Source: an uncultured Candidatus Saccharibacteria bacterium
GTDB taxonomy: Bacteria; Patescibacteriota; Doudnabacteria; UBA920
DNA length: 64,000 bases
Assembly: GCA_964473815.1 (NCBI GenBank)
Contig: CAYYQK010000004.1
Coordinates: 68,493 to 132,492, forward strand
Direction: 5' to 3'
Shown: positions 1-57,113 of the stretch, in pieces
Position numbering within the stretch: position 1 is the stretch's first letter
How the letters are laid out: every line of letters begins with the position of its first letter
Notes under the pieces: model-generated
Told to the model about the DNA's origin: nothing
Seen by the model: the letters and a program-made list of their open reading frames with translations, nothing else
The model's database searches: none
Made by a program: the position numbers and the translations under genes

Positions 1-195
1 ACCGACATTCCTATCCCCCAAGATTTTTTGACCAACATCAAAATGGCAGCGCCGCAGCCGCCGCCTGAAACTCCCAAAATCAAAAACGATGCAGGAAAAT
101 CATACAAAGATCCAATCCCCACACCCGCAATGAAGCAACACAAAAAAACCGCAATGATTTTCGGCCCATTAATATTCATGGTGCCTACATCATAA
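1..195 (+). CDS. 3' end of a gene continuing from upstream of the window (Pro-rich region plus C-terminal hydrophobic segment); partial
   Basis: Frame 1 is open from position 1 to TAA at 193-195 (…MAAPQPPPETPKIKND…AMIFGPLIFMVPTS*). No start codon in window. Convergent with hisS. Confidence 0.3.
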   Translation, partial: TDIPIPQDFLTNIKMAAPQPPPETPKIKNDAGKSYKDPIPTPAMKQHKKTAMIFGPLIFMVPTS

Positions 196-6054: not shown

Positions 6055-7302
6055 TTAGGGCATAATGGCCTTGAACCATTTCTTTAATTTTACCACATTC
6101 TGATTTTCCAACAACCCTTTAATCGGACTGGTAAAATTAAACCCGCCAAAGCCACTTGTGAAGTTTCCACCCCACAAAGCCAACCCCACTACGGTTGCGA
6201 ACGATGGGTCTACCACTTGGTCAATAATGGTATCAGTTTCAGTAGGTACTCCAATTGATACAGGCAAGCGCAAGTAGTGTTTTGCGAATTCAACTATTCC
6301 TGGGAGCGCTGCTCCCCCACCGGTGATAACAATTCCAGCCGGGAGCTTGCCGTCGCGGTCGATGCGTTTTAATTCTGCAGTGATGCGATCAAAAATTTCT
6401 TCTAAACGTGCTTCGATAATTTCTGCAACAAGTTGTTGTGGAATGCGAGATTCTTCTTGCGGATCAATTCTCGACATATCAATTTCTGCAAGCTTGTCGA
6501 CAAGTGCTGGTGCTGCCTGACCATATTGCAACTTCACTTTTTCTGCAGTGTCGATTGTACAACGAAGCCCGATGGCAATGTCATTAGTCATGTGCATGCT
6601 ACCGATTGGAATAATTGCTGTATGTAATAAATTATTTTCTTCGTAAACAGCCAAACTTGTTGTTCCAGCACCAAGGTCAATTAACGCAACGCCCAATTCT
6701 TTTTGGCGCTTGTTCAAAACGGACTGACCAGCAGCCAACGGTGACAATACCAACTGATCAACTTCCAAACCTGCCTGAGTAATAGCTTTGTTCAAGTTCT
6801 TCAAGAACGGCAACGCGCCATGAATAATAATCGTTTCAACCTCAAGACGAATACCAGTCATGCCGATCGGGTCTTTAATCCCGGCCTGGCCATCCAAAGT
6901 AAATGTTTTTGGAATAACGTGAATGACTTCGCGGTTCGGCGGAATGGACACAGCTTGTGAAGCATCAATAACGCGAATAACATCATTTTCAGAAATTTCG
7001 CCATCCGCACGCGACACAGCAATCACGCCCTTACTGTCCATGCAAGCGATGTGATTACCACCAACCGAAACATTGGCATGTGTAACCGGTACGCCGGTCA
7101 TGCGCTCAACTTTTTCCAACACTGCTGAAATAGAAGATACTGCTTCATCAATATCAACTATAACTCCTTTACGAAGTCCGTTAGCAGGAACACTCGCCGC
7201 ACCAATAATATTGATGCGCCCAGTTTCTTCGAGCTTCCCCTGGACTACGCGAATTGTGTGAGTGCCGACATCGAGGCCAACAATGTATTGTTCTTTTGCC
7301 AT
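6055..7302 (-). CDS. ftsA: cell division protein FtsA
   Basis: Actin-like ATPase fold (DVGTHTIRVV…, DLGAGTTSLAVY). Located immediately upstream of ftsZ. Confidence 0.85.
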   Translation of the reverse strand: MAKEQYIVGLDVGTHTIRVVQGKLEETGRINIIGAASVPANGLRKGVIVDIDEAVSSISAVLEKVERMTGVPVTHANVSVGGNHIACMDSKGVIAVSRADGEISENDVIRVIDASQAVSIPPNREVIHVIPKTFTLDGQAGIKDPIGMTGIRLEVETIIIHGALPFLKNLNKAITQAGLEVDQLVLSPLAAGQSVLNKRQKELGVALIDLGAGTTSLAVYEENNLLHTAIIPIGSMHMTNDIAIGLRCTIDTAEKVKLQYGQAAPALVDKLAEIDMSRIDPQEESRIPQQLVAEIIEARLEEIFDRITAELKRIDRDGKLPAGIVITGGGAALPGIVEFAKHYLRLPVSIGVPTETDTIIDQVVDPSFATVVGLALWGGNFTSGFGGFNFTSPIKGLLENQNVVKLKKWFKAIMP

Positions 7303-8570: not shown

Positions 8571-9875
8571 TTAGCGTTCAAGTCGTTTTCGGACTTCTGC
8601 AATTATCTTATCATATGAAAAGACTTCTTGCATGCCACTTTTTACGTCTCGTAAAATAACCATATCATCCATGGCTTCCTTTTGCCCCATAATCAGGGCA
8701 ATTGGAGCCTTGCTTTCCTCGGCTTGTTTAAGCTGATTTTTTACACCAACAGTTCCAAAGTGGTCGTGGACGCGAATATTCTCCCCTATTAGGTCGCGGA
8801 ACAATCGCAAAGAACGCTTCGCCGCCAATTCTCCCAGAGGAACTAAAAATACTTCGCTATGATTTTCAATCTTCGTATCGATTTCAGAAAGTTCCATGGC
8901 GCGAGCAAGCGCTGCAAGATTGCCATTGAATCCAAAAGCAGGACTTGACTTGCCATCAATATTTTTTAAAAGCATATCGTGATGCGCAGCTTCACCTAAC
9001 ACAACCGAATTGTTACCCTTCTTGTACTTTACACTCAAGTTTGTGCCAGTGCTGCCTTCGGGGCCAATATATAATTGATTCAGCTGGTAAGGCAGTCCGA
9101 GTTCGTCGAGAGCTTCTAAAATATCTGTAAATTGTTTGCGGGCTTCATTGTCTAAAAAGTCGACTATAGCTGGCGCCTCAGCTGCAATTAACTGACAATC
9201 TAAATTTTCGCAGCGCAAAATATTTAACACGCGGCCACGCATGTGCGCATTACAGTTATCACACAATTCAAACTCTTTACCTTTCAAATAATCTTTCAGT
9301 ACATTTTGGTAAGCATTCTGTACTTGCATATCGCCGGCGGTATTTATTTCCAACTGCAAATCTTCTGCTGCCAAACCAAGTCGCTGAGTTAAATCCCACA
9401 CCGCACTAACAACCTGCGCTTCAGTTAAGTGATTAAAGCTCCCGAACACTTCAAATCCAAATTGGTAATTAAAATGCAAAGCCTGCTTGGCATCAGTTTC
9501 AACAACGTTCCCTAAATATAACCACTTCGAAAGTGGTTGGACTTCAGCAACTTTATTCTGTACATAGTGACGCAACACCGAAGGTAACAAAGCTGCGCGA
9601 ACGCCCATTGGTTTACCGCTTTGCTGGGCGAAAACTATTTTTTCTAAAACTTCTGGCTGATTTTTATAGTAATCAGCGTAAACCCTTTGCTCTTCTAAAA
9701 TGGCGGTTTCCACTGTTAAAAAGCCGTAAAGTTGGGCTACAGTGCGAACCTGTTCCATTATTAAGTTCCATTGCGGCGAAGTTTGGGTAGTAATATCCCG
9801 CAAACCGCTGATTGTTCCAGCTTTAGGTACTCGAACAGGAGCCGCAATAACGGTTTTTTTGGCAGTCTTTTGCAT
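8571..9875 (-). CDS. HisRS-like paralog with degenerate catalytic motifs (HisZ-like / pseudo-synthetase) retaining the anticodon-binding domain
   Basis: Aligns block by block with hisS in this window. N-terminus PKAGTISGLRD vs GFRDYGP. Motif 2 [25 protein letters not shown] corresponds to SKWLYLGNVVETDAKQALHFNYQ. Motif 3 GGRYDGL corresponds to GEAAHHDML. Extra CxxC…C…C insertion (LCDNCNAHMRGRVLNILRCENLDC). Class-II anticodon-binding-domain-like C-terminus. Confidence 0.6.
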   Translation of the reverse strand: MQKTAKKTVIAAPVRVPKAGTISGLRDITTQTSPQWNLIMEQVRTVAQLYGFLTVETAILEEQRVYADYYKNQPEVLEKIVFAQQSGKPMGVRAALLPSVLRHYVQNKVAEVQPLSKWLYLGNVVETDAKQALHFNYQFGFEVFGSFNHLTEAQVVSAVWDLTQRLGLAAEDLQLEINTAGDMQVQNAYQNVLKDYLKGKEFELCDNCNAHMRGRVLNILRCENLDCQLIAAEAPAIVDFLDNEARKQFTDILEALDELGLPYQLNQLYIGPEGSTGTNLSVKYKKGNNSVVLGEAAHHDMLLKNIDGKSSPAFGFNGNLAALARAMELSEIDTKIENHSEVFLVPLGELAAKRSLRLFRDLIGENIRVHDHFGTVGVKNQLKQAEESKAPIALIMGQKEAMDDMVILRDVKSGMQEVFSYDKIIAEVRKRLER

Positions 9876-14549: not shown

Positions 14550-14837
14550 CTATGAGAGCCGTAAGTCTTTGAGCTTCATCATACAAAGGCCGCCACGGCG
14601 ACCGAAGTCGACATCAACGATATCTGAGGTACGGCCGTTTGTAGACGGAGCGTGAATTTCAACTATTTTGCCGGCGACCCCCTCAGAAGCACCGAAGCGT
14701 CCGTTGCTGATAACGGTCTGGCCTACTTCAAGCCAATTTTTTGGCTCAGATATATCCTGGGTGATTTTGACTATCTTGTCACTTTGATCATATCCCAAGG
14801 TTAGGCCACCAACTTCTACTTCTCGAATTTCTGACAT
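14550..14837 (-). CDS. hypothetical small protein (SH3-like/DUF1918-like pattern)
   Basis: Start MSEIREV preceded by CAGGAGGAGTGT-ATG. Pattern G-x-x-V-x-x-G…GKIVEIH…D-x-DFG loosely recalls DUF1918. The ORF-track N-terminal extension is rejected. Confidence 0.5.
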   Translation of the reverse strand: MSEIREVEVGGLTLGYDQSDKIVKITQDISEPKNWLEVGQTVISNGRFGASEGVAGKIVEIHAPSTNGRTSDIVDVDFGRRGGLCMMKLKDLRLS

Positions 14838-14867
14838 ACACTCCTCCTGATCTTTCAATACGTATGC

Positions 14868-14905
14868 AAAATAAAACCGCCACAACTTTTGTTTTGGCGG
14901 TGCTT
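14868..14905 (-). terminator. intrinsic terminator / attenuator hairpin immediately upstream of the 14550..14837 gene
   Basis: On the minus strand, accgccaaaacaaaagttgtggcggt followed by UUUUAUUUUG, about 30 nt before the SD of the downstream gene. Confidence 0.55.
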
Positions 14906-15046
14906 ATCTGCACCACCCCACCTACAAGTGAGAACCACCAGACAAACGCCTAGAAAGCTCTGCTTAACCGCTAGAAACATTGAATAGGAGGGATGATCAA
15001 TGTCTTCGCGACTTGCAAGTAGGATACTGCAGACAATCGTGAAGGC

Positions 15047-15075
15047 AGTATACACTAATTTGGAGGTTTTGTCAA
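15047..15075 (-). promoter_or_regulatory. sigma70-like promoter on the minus strand (TTGACA-17-TATACT)
   Basis: Reverse complement reads cTTGACAaaacctccaaattagtgTATACT. It drives a ~170-nt transcript ending at the 14868..14905 hairpin. Confidence 0.6.
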
Positions 15076-15101
15076 GGTAGGCTGAAAAACAAAATTCAGT
15101 A

Positions 15102-15158
15102 AAATTTGAGTAAATCTTTATCTAAACTTGAGAAAAACTTTATGTGTTCTTGAGGATG
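15102..15158 (+). repeat. copy 1 of a ~45-55 bp A-tract-phased repeat element upstream of dprA
   Basis: aaatttgagtaaatctttatctaaacttgagaaaaactttatgtgttcttgagg. Related copies at 21385..21430 (+), 56913..56967 (+), 196..250 (-) and a partial copy at 49205..49245 (-). Confidence 0.7.
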
Positions 15159-15177
15159 GCTTTGCTAGTCTGAAAGT

Positions 15178-16278
15178 ATGTATTTAAATAATCCTGACCT
15201 AGAGCCTTTCTATCTATATATACTCTCTCGCCTGCCGGTTCGGCGATTAGATATTTTTGAACATTGGCGCGCCCAGGCCGGAACATTTGAAGCCGTTTAT
15301 CTATCTAGCGAGAGACAACTTAAGGAATTAGGTTGGGGCTATGAACTAGTCTTAAAATTTCGGGAAATAAAAAATGAGTGGTCTGTGGAAAAATTGGTAA
15401 ATGTCGTAGAGAAAACCAATGTGAGCATGGTGACATATTTAGATACGGACTATCCTGCAATGCTTCGAGAAATTACTGACCCGCCGCCCGTGCTATTTTT
15501 TCGGGGGCAGTTAAATAAAAGTGAGGCATGCATTGCGATTGTTGGATCCAGAAAAATGTCTAATTATGGCTTAGGCATGATCCCAAAAATTGCTGGCCCT
15601 TTGGTCAATGCTGGAGTGACAATTGTATCAGGTCTTGCTTATGGCATTGATAGCGCAGCACATACAGAAAGCGTTAATCGACAAGCGCGAACAATAGCAG
15701 TGCTTGGAACAGGGGTAGACGAAAAAAGTATCTATCCGCGTGGGCATTTAAAACTGGCTCATCAAATTTTAGAAACAGGCGGATTACTAATTTCCGAGCA
15801 ACCACCCGGGACACCTGGGCTACCGCATCATTTTGTAGCGCGCAACCGAATTATTGCCGGTCTTTCACTGGGCGTAATTATAGTAGAATGCAAAGTCAAA
15901 AGCGGCGCGTTAATTACTGCGGACTACGCAGCGGATTTTAACAGAAATTTGTACGCTGTACCTGGCCCAGCGTATTCAGCACTCAGCGCTGGTCCTCATG
16001 AATTAATTCGTAACGGCGCAATGTTAATCACTTGCGGTGAAGATGTGTTGCAAGATATCAAACTTGATCTGGCGCAGCTTCCGGAAACTGCAAAGCCAAA
16101 ACCAAAATTCTCGGAATTAGAACAACGTGTGTTAGAATGTATGCAAGACGAGCCTCAAAGTGCTACGGAAATCATTGTTGCAACAAACGCATCAACAGAA
16201 ATTGTGATGCAAACAATTACATTGCTTGAACTACGCGGCGCGATCAAAGAAATAAATAATAAATATTATAAGACGTGA
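15178..16278 (+). CDS. dprA: DNA-processing protein DprA (Smf)
   Basis: Rossmann-like DprA core LGMIPKIAGPLVNAGVTIVSGLAYGIDSAAHTESV. Confidence 0.85.
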   Translation: MYLNNPDLEPFYLYILSRLPVRRLDIFEHWRAQAGTFEAVYLSSERQLKELGWGYELVLKFREIKNEWSVEKLVNVVEKTNVSMVTYLDTDYPAMLREITDPPPVLFFRGQLNKSEACIAIVGSRKMSNYGLGMIPKIAGPLVNAGVTIVSGLAYGIDSAAHTESVNRQARTIAVLGTGVDEKSIYPRGHLKLAHQILETGGLLISEQPPGTPGLPHHFVARNRIIAGLSLGVIIVECKVKSGALITADYAADFNRNLYAVPGPAYSALSAGPHELIRNGAMLITCGEDVLQDIKLDLAQLPETAKPKPKFSELEQRVLECMQDEPQSATEIIVATNASTEIVMQTITLLELRGAIKEINNKYYKT

Positions 16279-21206: not shown

Positions 21207-21235
21207 TTGAAAAAATCTACCAAATACGCTAGAAT
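21207..21235 (+). promoter_or_regulatory. sigma70-like promoter for tRNA-Lys (TTGAAA-17-TAGAAT)
   Basis: cTTGAAAaaatctaccaaatacgcTAGAAT, about 40 nt upstream of the tRNA 5' end. Confidence 0.55.
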
Positions 21236-21365: not shown

Positions 21366-21391
21366 TAAACCGCCGCGTGGCGGTTTTTTTA
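21366..21391 (+). terminator. intrinsic terminator after tRNA-Lys
   Basis: accgccgcgtggcggt + T7. Confidence 0.8.
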
Positions 21392-21430
21392 TCTAAACTT
21401 TAGAAAAACTTTATGTGGAATTGAGGTAGT
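21385..21430 (+). repeat. copy 2 of the A-tract-phased repeat element
   Basis: cggtttttttatctaaactttagaaaaactttatgtggaattgagg; 44/50 identical to the minus-strand copy at 196..250. Confidence 0.7.
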
Positions 21431-21440
21431 GTATGTTATG

Positions 21441-21470
21441 TTGACAAAGCGTCCTAGTGAGCGTTAAAAT
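21441..21470 (+). promoter_or_regulatory. sigma70-like promoter (TTGACA-18-TAAAAT) for the 21492 gene
   Basis: TTGACAaagcgtcctagtgagcgtTAAAAT. Confidence 0.5.
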
Positions 21471-21491: not shown

Positions 21492-21734
21492 ATGGACAAA
21501 GACCTCAAACAACATCTTGAAAAGATGGAAAAATCAATTGTGAACAAAGTCGAAATAAAAATCGACAGTGCAGTAGATCAACTTGCCCAAATAATTGCCG
21601 AAACAGTCGCCAATCCTCTTCAAAAACACATGGAAGAAACCCGCGATCATGCCAGCATTAGGCAAGATGTCGCATTATTGAAGCACGACATGAGCATCGT
21701 CAAGAAAAAGCTCAATATTCCTGCAACAACATAA
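21492..21734 (+). CDS. hypothetical small coiled-coil protein
   Basis: MDKDLKQHLEKMEK…; N- and C-terminal resemblance to the 48837..49178 protein; followed by a terminator. Confidence 0.45.
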   Translation: MDKDLKQHLEKMEKSIVNKVEIKIDSAVDQLAQIIAETVANPLQKHMEETRDHASIRQDVALLKHDMSIVKKKLNIPATT

Positions 21735-39877: not shown

Positions 39878-40080
39878 TTCGACCTCCTGCTATTTGTGAA
39901 ATTTTAAGCACTAGAATTCACTAACGCCGAGTCAAAAAGACTTATGAAAATAACACATTTTTAGCATTTGGTCAATTCGTTAAACGTTTATAAAATTATA
40001 TCCGGCATGTTTATAAGTTTGCTGGATATCTCATAAATTTTTTTCTTAAGATTTTAGAAAAGTTTTAGTTTTTCTTGATC

Positions 40081-40300
40081 AGGACTTTATCGGGCTTATG
40101 TAATGATGAGGGTCATGGGCGGTTCGTCTAAGTAATTAAGACTCATCTCTACGAAAGGTGGAATTCGGGTGCAAGTCCCGAGCTGTCCACCACCTTGTGT
40201 AGAGTTTCCAAATATGATATCCTATAGCTACTTTCGTAGAGATGTGGGTCTTGCACCCAATTAGACGAGAAAGCCGCGCCAAATGGCGCGGCTTTTAATT
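40081..40300 (+). ncRNA. candidate structured RNA with pseudoknot-type long-range pairings and its own intrinsic terminator
   Basis: Pairing segments: A 40144-40157 with A' 40231-40244 (14 nt perfect); B 40167-40175 with B' 40250-40258 (9 nt); C 40124-40131 with C' 40261-40267. Order C-A-B-A'-B'-C'. Terminator aagccgcgcc-aa-ggcgcggctt + TTTTAATTTT at 40270-40300. Confidence 0.4.
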
Positions 40301-48814: not shown

Positions 48815-48848
48815 AAAAACCGCCGGTGTGGCGGTTTTATATTTTTAC
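48815..48848. terminator. bidirectional intrinsic terminator
   Basis: accgccggtgtggcggt + TTTTATATTTTT; A-tract upstream serves the convergent minus-strand gene. Confidence 0.7.
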
Positions 48849-49178
48849 TCCCTGACTTTTCAGATGTAGCTTTATTTTTTCTACGTCTTTCATGGTTGCT
48901 CGGATATCTTCGTCTGATCGTTTATCTAATTTAGTGACCTTATCTTTCACATCTTTCAAATCGATTTTGATTTCAGCTATCTCACCATCAACACGTGCGA
49001 ACCTAAAGTTCATTTCACTGCGCAATTCCGCAAGTTCTGCCTTGGTAGCGAGACCCTTCAAGTCGTCCTTTGTGGCCAGGCCCTTCAAGTCTTTTTTAGT
49101 GGCAAGACTTTTGAGTTCATCTTTGGTCGCGAGGGTCGCGAATTGCTCTATTAAAAATTCGGTAAGTTCTTTGTCCAT
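48837..49178 (-). CDS. coiled-coil protein with tandem 9-aa (27-bp) repeats LATK(D/K)(D/E)LKG
   Basis: …LATKDELKSLATKKDLKGLATKDDLKGLATKAELAEL… Extended -10 TGaTATAAT lies 6 nt before the ATG. Confidence 0.5.
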   Translation of the reverse strand: MDKELTEFLIEQFATLATKDELKSLATKKDLKGLATKDDLKGLATKAELAELRSEMNFRFARVDGEIAEIKIDLKDVKDKVTKLDKRSDEDIRATMKDVEKIKLHLKSQGVKI

Positions 49179-49281
49179 AAATTAATTATATCATGGTGTC
49201 TAGTGAGGTCTGAGATAAAGTTTTACTGAATTTTTAAAGTCGAATTTATGGCTTATTTATAAGAGATTTGGTAATTTTTAT

Positions 49282-56876: not shown

Positions 56877-56912
56877 CACTGGACAAAATCCCCTATATTT
56901 GCTAGAATTTAG

Positions 56913-56967
56913 GAAATTTGGAGAAATCTTTAGCGAAACTTGAGAAAAACTTTAAGTTTTCTTGAGT
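56913..56967 (+). repeat. copy 3 of the A-tract-phased repeat element upstream of the rpsF operon
   Basis: ggaaatttggagaaatctttagcgaaacttgagaaaaactttaagttttcttgagtacc; the terminal TTGAGT may act as a -35 (then a 15-16 nt spacer and TATAGT). Confidence 0.7.
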
Positions 56968-57113
56968 ACCATTCAGGCACAATATAGTTAAGGCCTTTAT
57001 CAAGACTATTAACTAAACTGCCTATGGAGCACCTCAGCTAAGAGTTTCTGCAAACATCAAATAATTAATATTCTCTGCAACAATTGGGTTGTAGAGATAA
57101 GGAGCAATTCCTT

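Follow-up and report, generated by a model that had tools for sequence, protein, structure and literature searches.

Phased -35-like direct repeats upstream of comEC, dprA and ssb as a putative activator-dependent promoter class in a Saccharibacteria lineage

Introduction

The stretch of DNA analysed here (the window, 64,000 nucleotides (nt) of contig CAYYQK010000004.1 from an uncultured Candidatus Saccharibacteria bacterium) contains a short repeat upstream of dprA, at 15102, which recurs at several other sites. What is this repeat, and why does it stand where it does? A first-pass annotation, made from the sequence, had described five copies of an element of about 45–55 bp with phased A-tracts, mostly close to promoters, and had proposed bent DNA, an UP-like element or a dispersed, possibly once-mobile repeat. 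Saccharibacteria are naturally transformable and require comEC for transformation (PMC10633639). Our literature search found no described Saccharibacteria promoter or regulon motif and nothing on the control of their competence genes. Here, we describe the repeat as an array of 11-bp units held in a fixed register to a -10-like box and kept at orthologous promoters. We infer from the sequence a promoter role, the binding of an activator and, with less confidence, a competence-linked regulon. On balance, the repeat is probably the upstream half of a distinct activator-dependent, pho-box-like promoter class in this Saccharibacteria lineage.

Results

The repeat is an array of 11-bp units

Reading of the sequence confirmed four closely similar copies at the positions annotated at first pass. 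Their core, AAACTTKAGAAAAACTTTA, has four exact matches in the window, at 15124(+), 21395(+), 56936(+) and 236(-), and the 19-mer AAACTT(G/T)AGAAAAACTTTA matches exactly at the same four sites. With up to three mismatches, the core matches seven times in the window against 0.14 expected, a count reached in none of 100 shuffles. The copies had been thought to form two pairs of about 88% identity, which holds for the copies at 15102 and 56914 (87% over 53 nt in the repeat search); the other pair, 188–254 and 21377–21443, reaches 79% over 67 nt.

Rather than a single unit of 45–55 bp, the element comprises 11-bp units in an array. In each unit, an A-rich (A/T-rich) spacer precedes a -35-like hexamer, TTKAnn (TT(T/G)Ann), and two to five such units follow each other as direct repeats with a period of 11 bp, or one helical turn. 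The best-conserved part is a two-unit core, AAACTTTAGAAAAACTTTA, with its centre near -45. We built a position weight matrix (PWM) from the units and summed it across four consecutive units; in 30 shuffles the maximum score was 16.1. The scan returned five significant arrays, at 15101+ (45.4), 56924+ (42.1), 248- (40.2), 21383+ (34.8) and 40048+ (27.7). The partial copy annotated at 49205–49245(-) is not significant, and an array in front of a tRNA-Arg gene (40048–40091, +) had been missed. All arrays are promoter-associated, as the first reading had it, and every one of them points the same way as its downstream gene. The A-tracts of the window copies do show 11-bp phasing.

Downstream gene identities were checked with NCBIfam and Pfam. 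The arrays precede comEC, dprA, the rpsF-ssb-rpsR-efp operon, an open reading frame (ORF) for an 80-aa coiled-coil protein followed by a methyltransferase gene, and tRNA-Arg(ACG). The earlier identification of dprA, hisS, rpsF-ssb-rpsR-efp and tRNA-Lys was correct throughout.

A fixed register to a -10-like box replaces the canonical -35

The distance from the last hexamer to a -10-like box is exactly 10 bp in every window copy and in ten orthologous promoters. The box reads TAnnnT nearly throughout, the exceptions being CACAAT at rpsF and AATGAT at tRNA-Arg. When 25 instances are aligned on the -10 box, units 2–4 hold the 11-bp phase, and the array spans -72 to about -23, thereby extending into the core promoter. 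The composite TT[TG]A-N7-TT[TG]A-N12-TAnnnT occurs six times in the window against 0.36 expected. On the gene strand of dprA and comEC, the promoter scan found neither a sigma-70-type -35/-10 pair nor a -35 at a spacing of 16–18 bp. We rejected the last unit as a -35 at 17-bp spacing because the hexamers at that offset (TAGGCA, AAAGTA, GGAGCA and others) are not -10-like, and unit 2 would need a spacer of 21 bp. A simple UP-like add-on, as initially suggested, does not fit an array that reaches about -23, lacks a -35 at dprA and comEC and ends a rigid 10 bp from the -10 box.

Canonical promoters exist elsewhere in the window (tRNA-Lys, 21207–21235; 21441–21470; rpsF P1, 56880–56908; and 15075–15047 on the minus strand). 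In cultivated Saccharibacteria, the strong tuf and rpsJ promoters that serve as genetic tools are of the canonical type, too, with TTTACA or TTGATA, N17 and TATAAT followed by Shine-Dalgarno leaders (PMC10633639 Table S4). By this comparison, the array-type promoters appear to be a class separate from the canonical ones.

The -10-like box lies only 6 nt (dprA) or 9 nt (comEC) before the start codon, which implies that both predicted mRNAs would be leaderless or nearly so. The same arrangement, a -10-like box directly before ATG without a Shine-Dalgarno sequence, occurs in the window at dprA (15166–15180, N6) and comEC (177–194(-), N9), and a coiled-coil gene at 49178(-) also shows TATAAT-N6-ATG. 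TAnnnT-N6-ATG without a Shine-Dalgarno sequence recurs among the sequences retrieved for comparison, which are cited here by L numbers, in L131, L132, L134, L137–L140, L053 (~7269, minus-strand orientation) and L066 (1256). This recurrence suggests that leaderless mRNAs might be in use in this lineage.

The five arrays and their promoters

The dprA array (15101–15155, +) has five 11-bp units with the hexamers TTGAGT (15106), TTTATC (15117), TTGAGA (15128), TTTATG (15139) and TTGAGG (15150). Ten bp past the last unit stands the box TAGTCT (15166–15171), and 6 nt separate it from the ATG at 15178; dprA and an ORF of 112 aa lie downstream.

The minus-strand array at 205–248 belongs to comEC. Its hexamers are TTTATC (243–238), TTTAGA (232–227), TTTACG (221–216) and TTGAAC (210–205), and 9 nt lie between the box TATGAT (194–189) and the ATG (179–177). 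comEC extends beyond the window start. On the same scaffold (L135), it encodes 481 aa with DUF4131 and Competence domains (PF13567+PF03772), and its start lies 48 nt past the hisS stop codon. The array overlaps the 3' end of hisS (the final codons and the stop), and the stop codon itself, TAG at 230–228 on the minus strand, falls within the repeat core, as noted at first pass. This overlap had been taken as a sign of mobility. The copy is instead the comEC promoter, with the same geometry in three relatives, and thus gives no evidence of mobility. The C-terminus of HisS (...AESLSKL*) aligns with those of its homologues (...ELAxKLx*), which, together with the comEC orthologues, rules out an insertion at this site.

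At rpsF-ssb-rpsR-efp, the array (56914–56967, +) would form a second promoter, P2, with the hexamers TTGGAG (56918), TTTAGC (56929), TTGAGA (56940), TTTAAG (56951) and TTGAGT (56962) and a candidate -10, CACAAT (56978–56983), 10 bp past the last unit. A canonical promoter with an additional TG, P1 (TGGACA-N17-TAGAAT, 56880–56908), lies upstream of the array and is kept in the relatives L141 and L142. The proposal that the terminal TTGAG serves as a -35 is unlikely: it lies 15 bp from TATAGT, whereas the geometry conserved between this copy and its orthologues is N10 to CACAAT, TACGCT or TAGTAT.

Another plus-strand setting is the region between the tRNA-Lys terminator and the genes for the 80-aa coiled-coil protein (21492) and an S-adenosylmethionine (SAM) methyltransferase (21784). 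The array (21383–21426, hexamers at 21388, 21399, 21410 and 21421) has an orthologue in L138 (12806), and its -10, TATGTT (21437–21442), overlaps a canonical promoter, TTGACA (21441)-N18-TAAAAT (21465–21470).

The tRNA-Arg(ACG) array (40048–40091, +; with its box 40048–40107) carries TTTAGA (40053), TTTAGT (40064), TTGATC (40075) and TTTATC (40086). The box AATGAT (40102–40107) follows at N10, 9 nt before the tRNA gene at 40117, and the predicted transcription start is 0–3 nt before the mature 5' end. An orthologous arrangement is present in L020. ARAGORN calls both tRNA genes (40117–40192 in the window and 3550–3625 in L020), and the Rfam tRNA model misses both at its gathering threshold.

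The weak partial copy at 49205–49245(-) consists of about two units (AAAATTCAGTAAAACTTTATC), matches the core with three mismatches and stays below the PWM threshold. Relative to the TATAAT-N6-ATG at the downstream gene for a 113-aa coiled-coil protein, it is out of register.

Orthologous promoters keep the hexamers and the phase

Orthologous loci were obtained via homologues of HisS, DprA and Ssb, giving 158 kb of DNA from relatives. The composite of two units, N10 and TAnnnT matches ten times in this DNA against 0.55 expected, and these ten matches occur only at the orthologues of comEC, dprA, rpsF-ssb-rpsR and the pair of small ORF and methyltransferase. Upstream of comEC, three relatives (L131, L132 and L134) have TTGAAG-N10-TACAAT-N6-ATG, TTGAAC-N10-TATGAT-N6-ATG and TTGAGC-N10-TATCAT-N6-ATG. 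One relative has an extra gene and a terminator between hisS and comEC, and there the array remains with comEC. Upstream of dprA, four relatives (L137–L140; 55–63% DprA identity) have TTGAGG or TTTATG, then N10, TAnnnT, N6 and ATG, with two to four additional units in phase farther upstream. We regard these ATGs as the true start codons because the conserved motif DLEPLYLYIL begins within about 10 residues of them. At rpsF, L141 and L142 show TTTAAG-N5-TTGAGG-N10 followed by TACGCT and TAGTAT, respectively, downstream of the conserved P1.

Units 3 and 4, which the composite does not demand, read TT[TG]A in six of the ten matches each, where a rough estimate from base composition predicts about 1%. 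The A-tracts are not conserved: L138 and L139 have spacers such as GGGAT and AGGGGT yet retain the TTKA hexamers in phase, and the A fraction of the spacers in the orthologues is 0.38–0.58. Specific C and G positions are also conserved in the array (CTTGAG, CTTTAyGT). The A-tract phasing behind the first-pass view of intrinsically bent DNA is present in the window copies, but it is the hexamers rather than the A-tracts that persist in distant orthologues. Within the genome, copies are more alike (87% between dprA and rpsF) than orthologous copies are between species.

Scanning one genome per species with the 19-mer gave matches of which about 85% were single chance matches in unrelated taxa; the extended array was found, with multiple matches per genome, only in metagenome-assembled genomes (MAGs) of Saccharibacteria/Patescibacteria. 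The window itself belongs to a 135-kb metagenomic scaffold, and its HisS, DprA and Ssb are most similar to proteins labelled Patescibacteria. One of the Saccharibacteria MAGs with the array, CAZLAR, shares a protein with the window at 75% identity, which identifies the source organism as a Saccharibacterium. A metagenome scan with a longer pattern yielded 14 loci, several of them duplicating loci already found. Among viral contigs, the 19-mer matched 24 times, mostly at one apparently coding, conserved site with near-identical flanks, and none of these matches has the array architecture. A phage origin was discarded on these grounds.

Neighbouring RNAs and genes

Several neighbours of the arrays deserve mention in their own right. 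A candidate structured non-coding RNA of about 175 nt (14862–15075, -) is divergent from dprA and conserved in L137–L140. It has a promoter, TTGACA-N17-TATACT (15075–15047, -), with 11 of 12 matches, and a terminator-like hairpin at ~14867–14895 with a T-run, seen by eye and not reported by the terminator scan. RNAalifold predicts 49 pairs, six of them with compensatory changes, and one hairpin loop of 13 nt, UCAUCCCUCCUAU, is invariant and similar to the anti-Shine-Dalgarno sequence. The candidate has no Rfam match.

The small coiled-coil proteins encoded at 21492–21734(+) and 48837–49178(-) resemble each other at the N-terminus (MDKDLKQHLEK... and MDKELTEFLIEQ...) and match nothing in Pfam or NCBIfam; a full array precedes the former gene and a degenerate one the latter. 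Two HisRS-type genes lie within 10 kb, namely hisS (228–1649, -) and a gene for a divergent tRNA-synt_His/HGTP_anticodon protein (8571–9875, -), a candidate HisZ-like protein or paralogue, and this gene pair is conserved in relatives.

Directly past the arrays in L027, L066, L067, L124 and L128 lies a stretch of about 80 nt (TGCTTTACAAGGCT...TATCCTACTTAGCTATAAG...), which in these Saccharibacteria MAGs and metagenome contigs precedes the gene for a secreted protein of 190 aa. It may be a leader or a small RNA; in the three loci scanned (L027, L067 and L128), Rfam gave no match. L053 also has an array of the tRNA-Arg subtype (~6541–6770, minus-strand orientation), and the G+C-rich stretch after it (GGGCCGAGCCGATGGTCGGCAGAAG...) lies roughly 230 nt before smpB. 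We guessed at an RNA gene there, for instance ssrA, but neither ARAGORN nor Rfam recognises a tmRNA.

Discussion

How could such an array work without a -35? Four observations point to a putative protein that replaces -35 recognition: the fixed helical phase, the rigid 10-bp gap, the missing -35 and the conservation of hexamers rather than A-tracts. In the mechanism we consider probable, a protein would bind the array head-to-tail along one face of the helix, would substitute for -35 recognition and would recruit the housekeeping RNA polymerase in the manner of PhoB on pho boxes. A promoter module of direct repeats replacing the -35 is a known kind, and it is the unit sequence that is new. The pho boxes of PhoB and the sites of other regulators of the OmpR/PhoB family (PhoP, PmrA, KdpE and CpxR) are direct repeats of hexamers or heptamers with an 11-bp period, whose proximal unit takes the place of the -35, about 10 bp upstream of the -10. 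The arrays share with them the tandem 6–7-bp repeats of 11-bp period, in strict register in the 25 instances here, a proximal unit ending about 10 bp from the -10 with no -35 at dprA and comEC, and T/A-rich units, such as TTTAC and CTTAAT in the pho boxes. They differ in having up to five units, a new unit sequence and a cognate regulator that is only putative, and in serving genes of DNA uptake and single-stranded DNA handling, a ribosomal-protein operon and a tRNA instead of phosphate genes.

The middle promoters of phage T4 offer a second precedent. There, a MotA box is centred at -30 and the activator displaces sigma region 4 on the DNA, a process termed sigma appropriation. These promoters likewise work without a -35; the MotA box ends 11–13 bp upstream of a TAnnnT -10, and its sequence, TTTGCTTTA, resembles the array unit aaaCTTTAt. 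The arrays are nevertheless found in a cellular rather than phage context, consist of several phased units instead of one box and have nothing similar in the viral contigs. We know of no AsiA or MotA homologues here. Among other known sites, CtsR heptad repeats (period 10, at clp genes), MraZ and ComK were discarded on sequence or period, as were DnaA boxes, which share only TTATC, and the LexA box, which is expected to be palindromic.

Which protein might read the array? No gene for a winged-helix response regulator was found within the window with NCBIfam or Pfam. A cultivated Saccharibacterium has two OmpR/PhoB-type regulators (PF00072+PF00486). In Southlakia epibionticum, the essential protein SEML1_0294, annotated as 'RpoS', has only sigma-70 region-4 and HARE-HTH domains (PMC10633639 Table S2) and is thus not a complete sigma factor; as a reader of -35-like repeats it is a speculative candidate. 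We treat both the OmpR/PhoB-type regulators and the region-4/HARE-HTH protein as leads rather than evidence.

The main rival is that RNA polymerase itself, through its alpha C-terminal domains and by wrapping on curved DNA, binds the array and boosts -10-only promoters without a dedicated factor, a reading that we hold possible at a distinctly lower level of confidence. Some of its support weighs directly against a dedicated activator. The spacer before unit 2 is 84% A+T in the unbiased orthologues, and the AAAAA found invariantly at about -45 to -41 falls on the proximal subsite of UP elements, so that a direct contact of RNA polymerase alpha is possible. It would also suit the 11-bp phasing of the A-tracts in the window copies, and the mixed gene set of MAG CAZLAR, a close relative by the 75% amino-acid identity of one protein found in both, could be that of a general 'strong promoter' module. 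Like UP elements, the arrays have A-rich tracts in helical phase at about -45, -56 and -67, lie close to the promoter and depend on orientation. An UP element (-59 to -38), however, sits upstream of a functional -35 and has no conserved G or C, whereas the array replaces the -35, reaches -23, within the region normally covered by sigma region 4, and conserves the TTKA hexamer and particular C and G positions; only the A-run at -45 to -41 fits the proximal subsite. G-rich spacers take the place of A-tracts in L138 and L139 and the hexamers stay, only four to five of the ~38 transcription units in the window have an array, and the published tuf and rpsJ fragments, which extend only about 13 bp beyond the -35 on its upstream side, function without an array (PMC10633639). 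In two Clostridia MAGs (Marinisporobacter; L024 4446 and L104 5345), we observed very similar phased AAAACTTTAGA arrays following a terminator, which would also be in line with polymerase-intrinsic reading. Their last unit, TTGTTA, lies 17 bp from a -10-like AGCAAT and hence would act as a normal -35; repeat arrays of this sort may have evolved independently to serve as upstream promoter elements. Three further points tell against the activator reading. The rpsF copy has CACAAT where TAnnnT is expected, canonical promoters adjoin two of the five window arrays (those at 21383 and 56914) and could suffice alone, and the source genome was covered over only ~74 kb.

The remaining alternatives would take the array out of activation altogether. 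An oligomeric repressor or nucleoid-associated protein might coat it and silence the -10-only promoters until a signal arrives, and the overlap with the core promoter (-72 to -23) is where repressors act; adjacent units even fit the loose IHF consensus WATCAANNNNTTR (TATCAAAACTTTA in the comEC copy), although fortuitously, and the match is missing from most orthologues. Since operators tolerate variable positions, and a rigid 10 bp with helical phase in 25 instances is typical of activators that touch the polymerase, we consider silencing unlikely. A dispersed, once-mobile short repeat that landed near promoters, similar to miniature inverted-repeat transposable elements (MITEs) or repetitive extragenic palindromic (REP) sequences, could explain through copying or gene conversion why copies within the genome are more alike than orthologous ones. 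Such an origin is very improbable for copies that all point the same way as the gene they precede and keep a constant register to the -10, that occupy the same orthologous promoters in relatives at 55–63% DprA identity and that leave the HisS C-terminus intact. The repeat has no stable fold and no array-type copies in the viral contigs scanned, and reading of the copies, with no formal test, revealed no terminal inverted repeats or target duplications (the repeat search listed only copy-to-copy matches). Least probable of all, in our estimate, is a DNA uptake sequence serving as a self-DNA tag, or a transcribed RNA leader. The phylum is naturally competent (PMC10633639), Haemophilus uptake sequences also have helically phased AT tracts, and the rpsF array lies downstream of a canonical promoter and would hence be transcribed. 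Yet known uptake sequences number roughly one per kb and take either orientation, against five copies in 64 kb here, all promoter-proximal and oriented, and hairpins cannot arise from direct repeats. Four copies were folded as RNA and gave no stable structure (z-scores from -1.06 to +0.22), and Rfam gave no match on the arrays, either in the whole window at the gathering threshold or in 14800–15200 at an E-value threshold; its only matches were two tRNAs with the former threshold and a single weak, spurious one with the latter.

If an activator does read the array, might its regulon be that of DNA uptake? comEC, dprA and ssb belong to the core competence regulon in Firmicutes and Gammaproteobacteria, and all three transcription units with these classical competence genes in the window carry arrays. 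By a rough, post-hoc estimate, which is itself inferential, the chance that five arrays among ~38 transcription units would cover all three is about 0.001. The elements of known competence regulons, i.e. the com-box of ComX, the CRP-S sites of Sxy/TfoX-CRP and the K-box of ComK, resemble the array as a signature shared by comEC, dprA and ssb, but differ from it in sequence and architecture: the com-box is TACGAATA, CRP-S is a palindrome and the K-box consists of AAAA-N5-TTTT pairs. Reading of the arrays showed neither TACGAATA nor a TGCGA-N6-TCGCA palindrome nor AAAA-N5-TTTT pairs. Also different from competence boxes, the array occurs at a tRNA gene and, in the relative, at toxin-antitoxin genes. 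tRNA-Arg carries an array both here and in MAG CAZLAR, where arrays further precede two RHH/RelE-like modules, a BrnT-like toxin and membrane and secreted proteins, and where one stands at a DNA stretch upstream of smpB. The gene set is therefore not purely one of competence genes. For this reason, we put forward only tentatively, and with doubt, that the array could be the operator of a Saccharibacteria competence (DNA-uptake) regulon, in which a putative activator would drive leaderless comEC and dprA and a second promoter of the ssb operon via phased -35-like repeats. Either of the two OmpR-type regulators or the Southlakia region-4/HARE-HTH protein would be a candidate activator.

ComEC-dependent transformation has made Saccharibacteria genetically tractable (PMC10633639), and the array may give the first handle on the control of competence genes in this group of the candidate phyla radiation (CPR). 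The promoter architecture shared by comEC, dprA and ssb provides a DNA bait, either the 19-mer or the whole array, for the putative regulator, together with a testable prediction of leaderless mRNAs and a motif for predicting regulons in thousands of MAGs. Even if RNA polymerase alone reads the array, it would still be a useful, portable promoter part for these organisms. Should the competence reading be true, the array would mark the first circuit known to regulate natural transformation in the CPR, and, with the region-4 protein as its reader, a new way of reading -35-like DNA.

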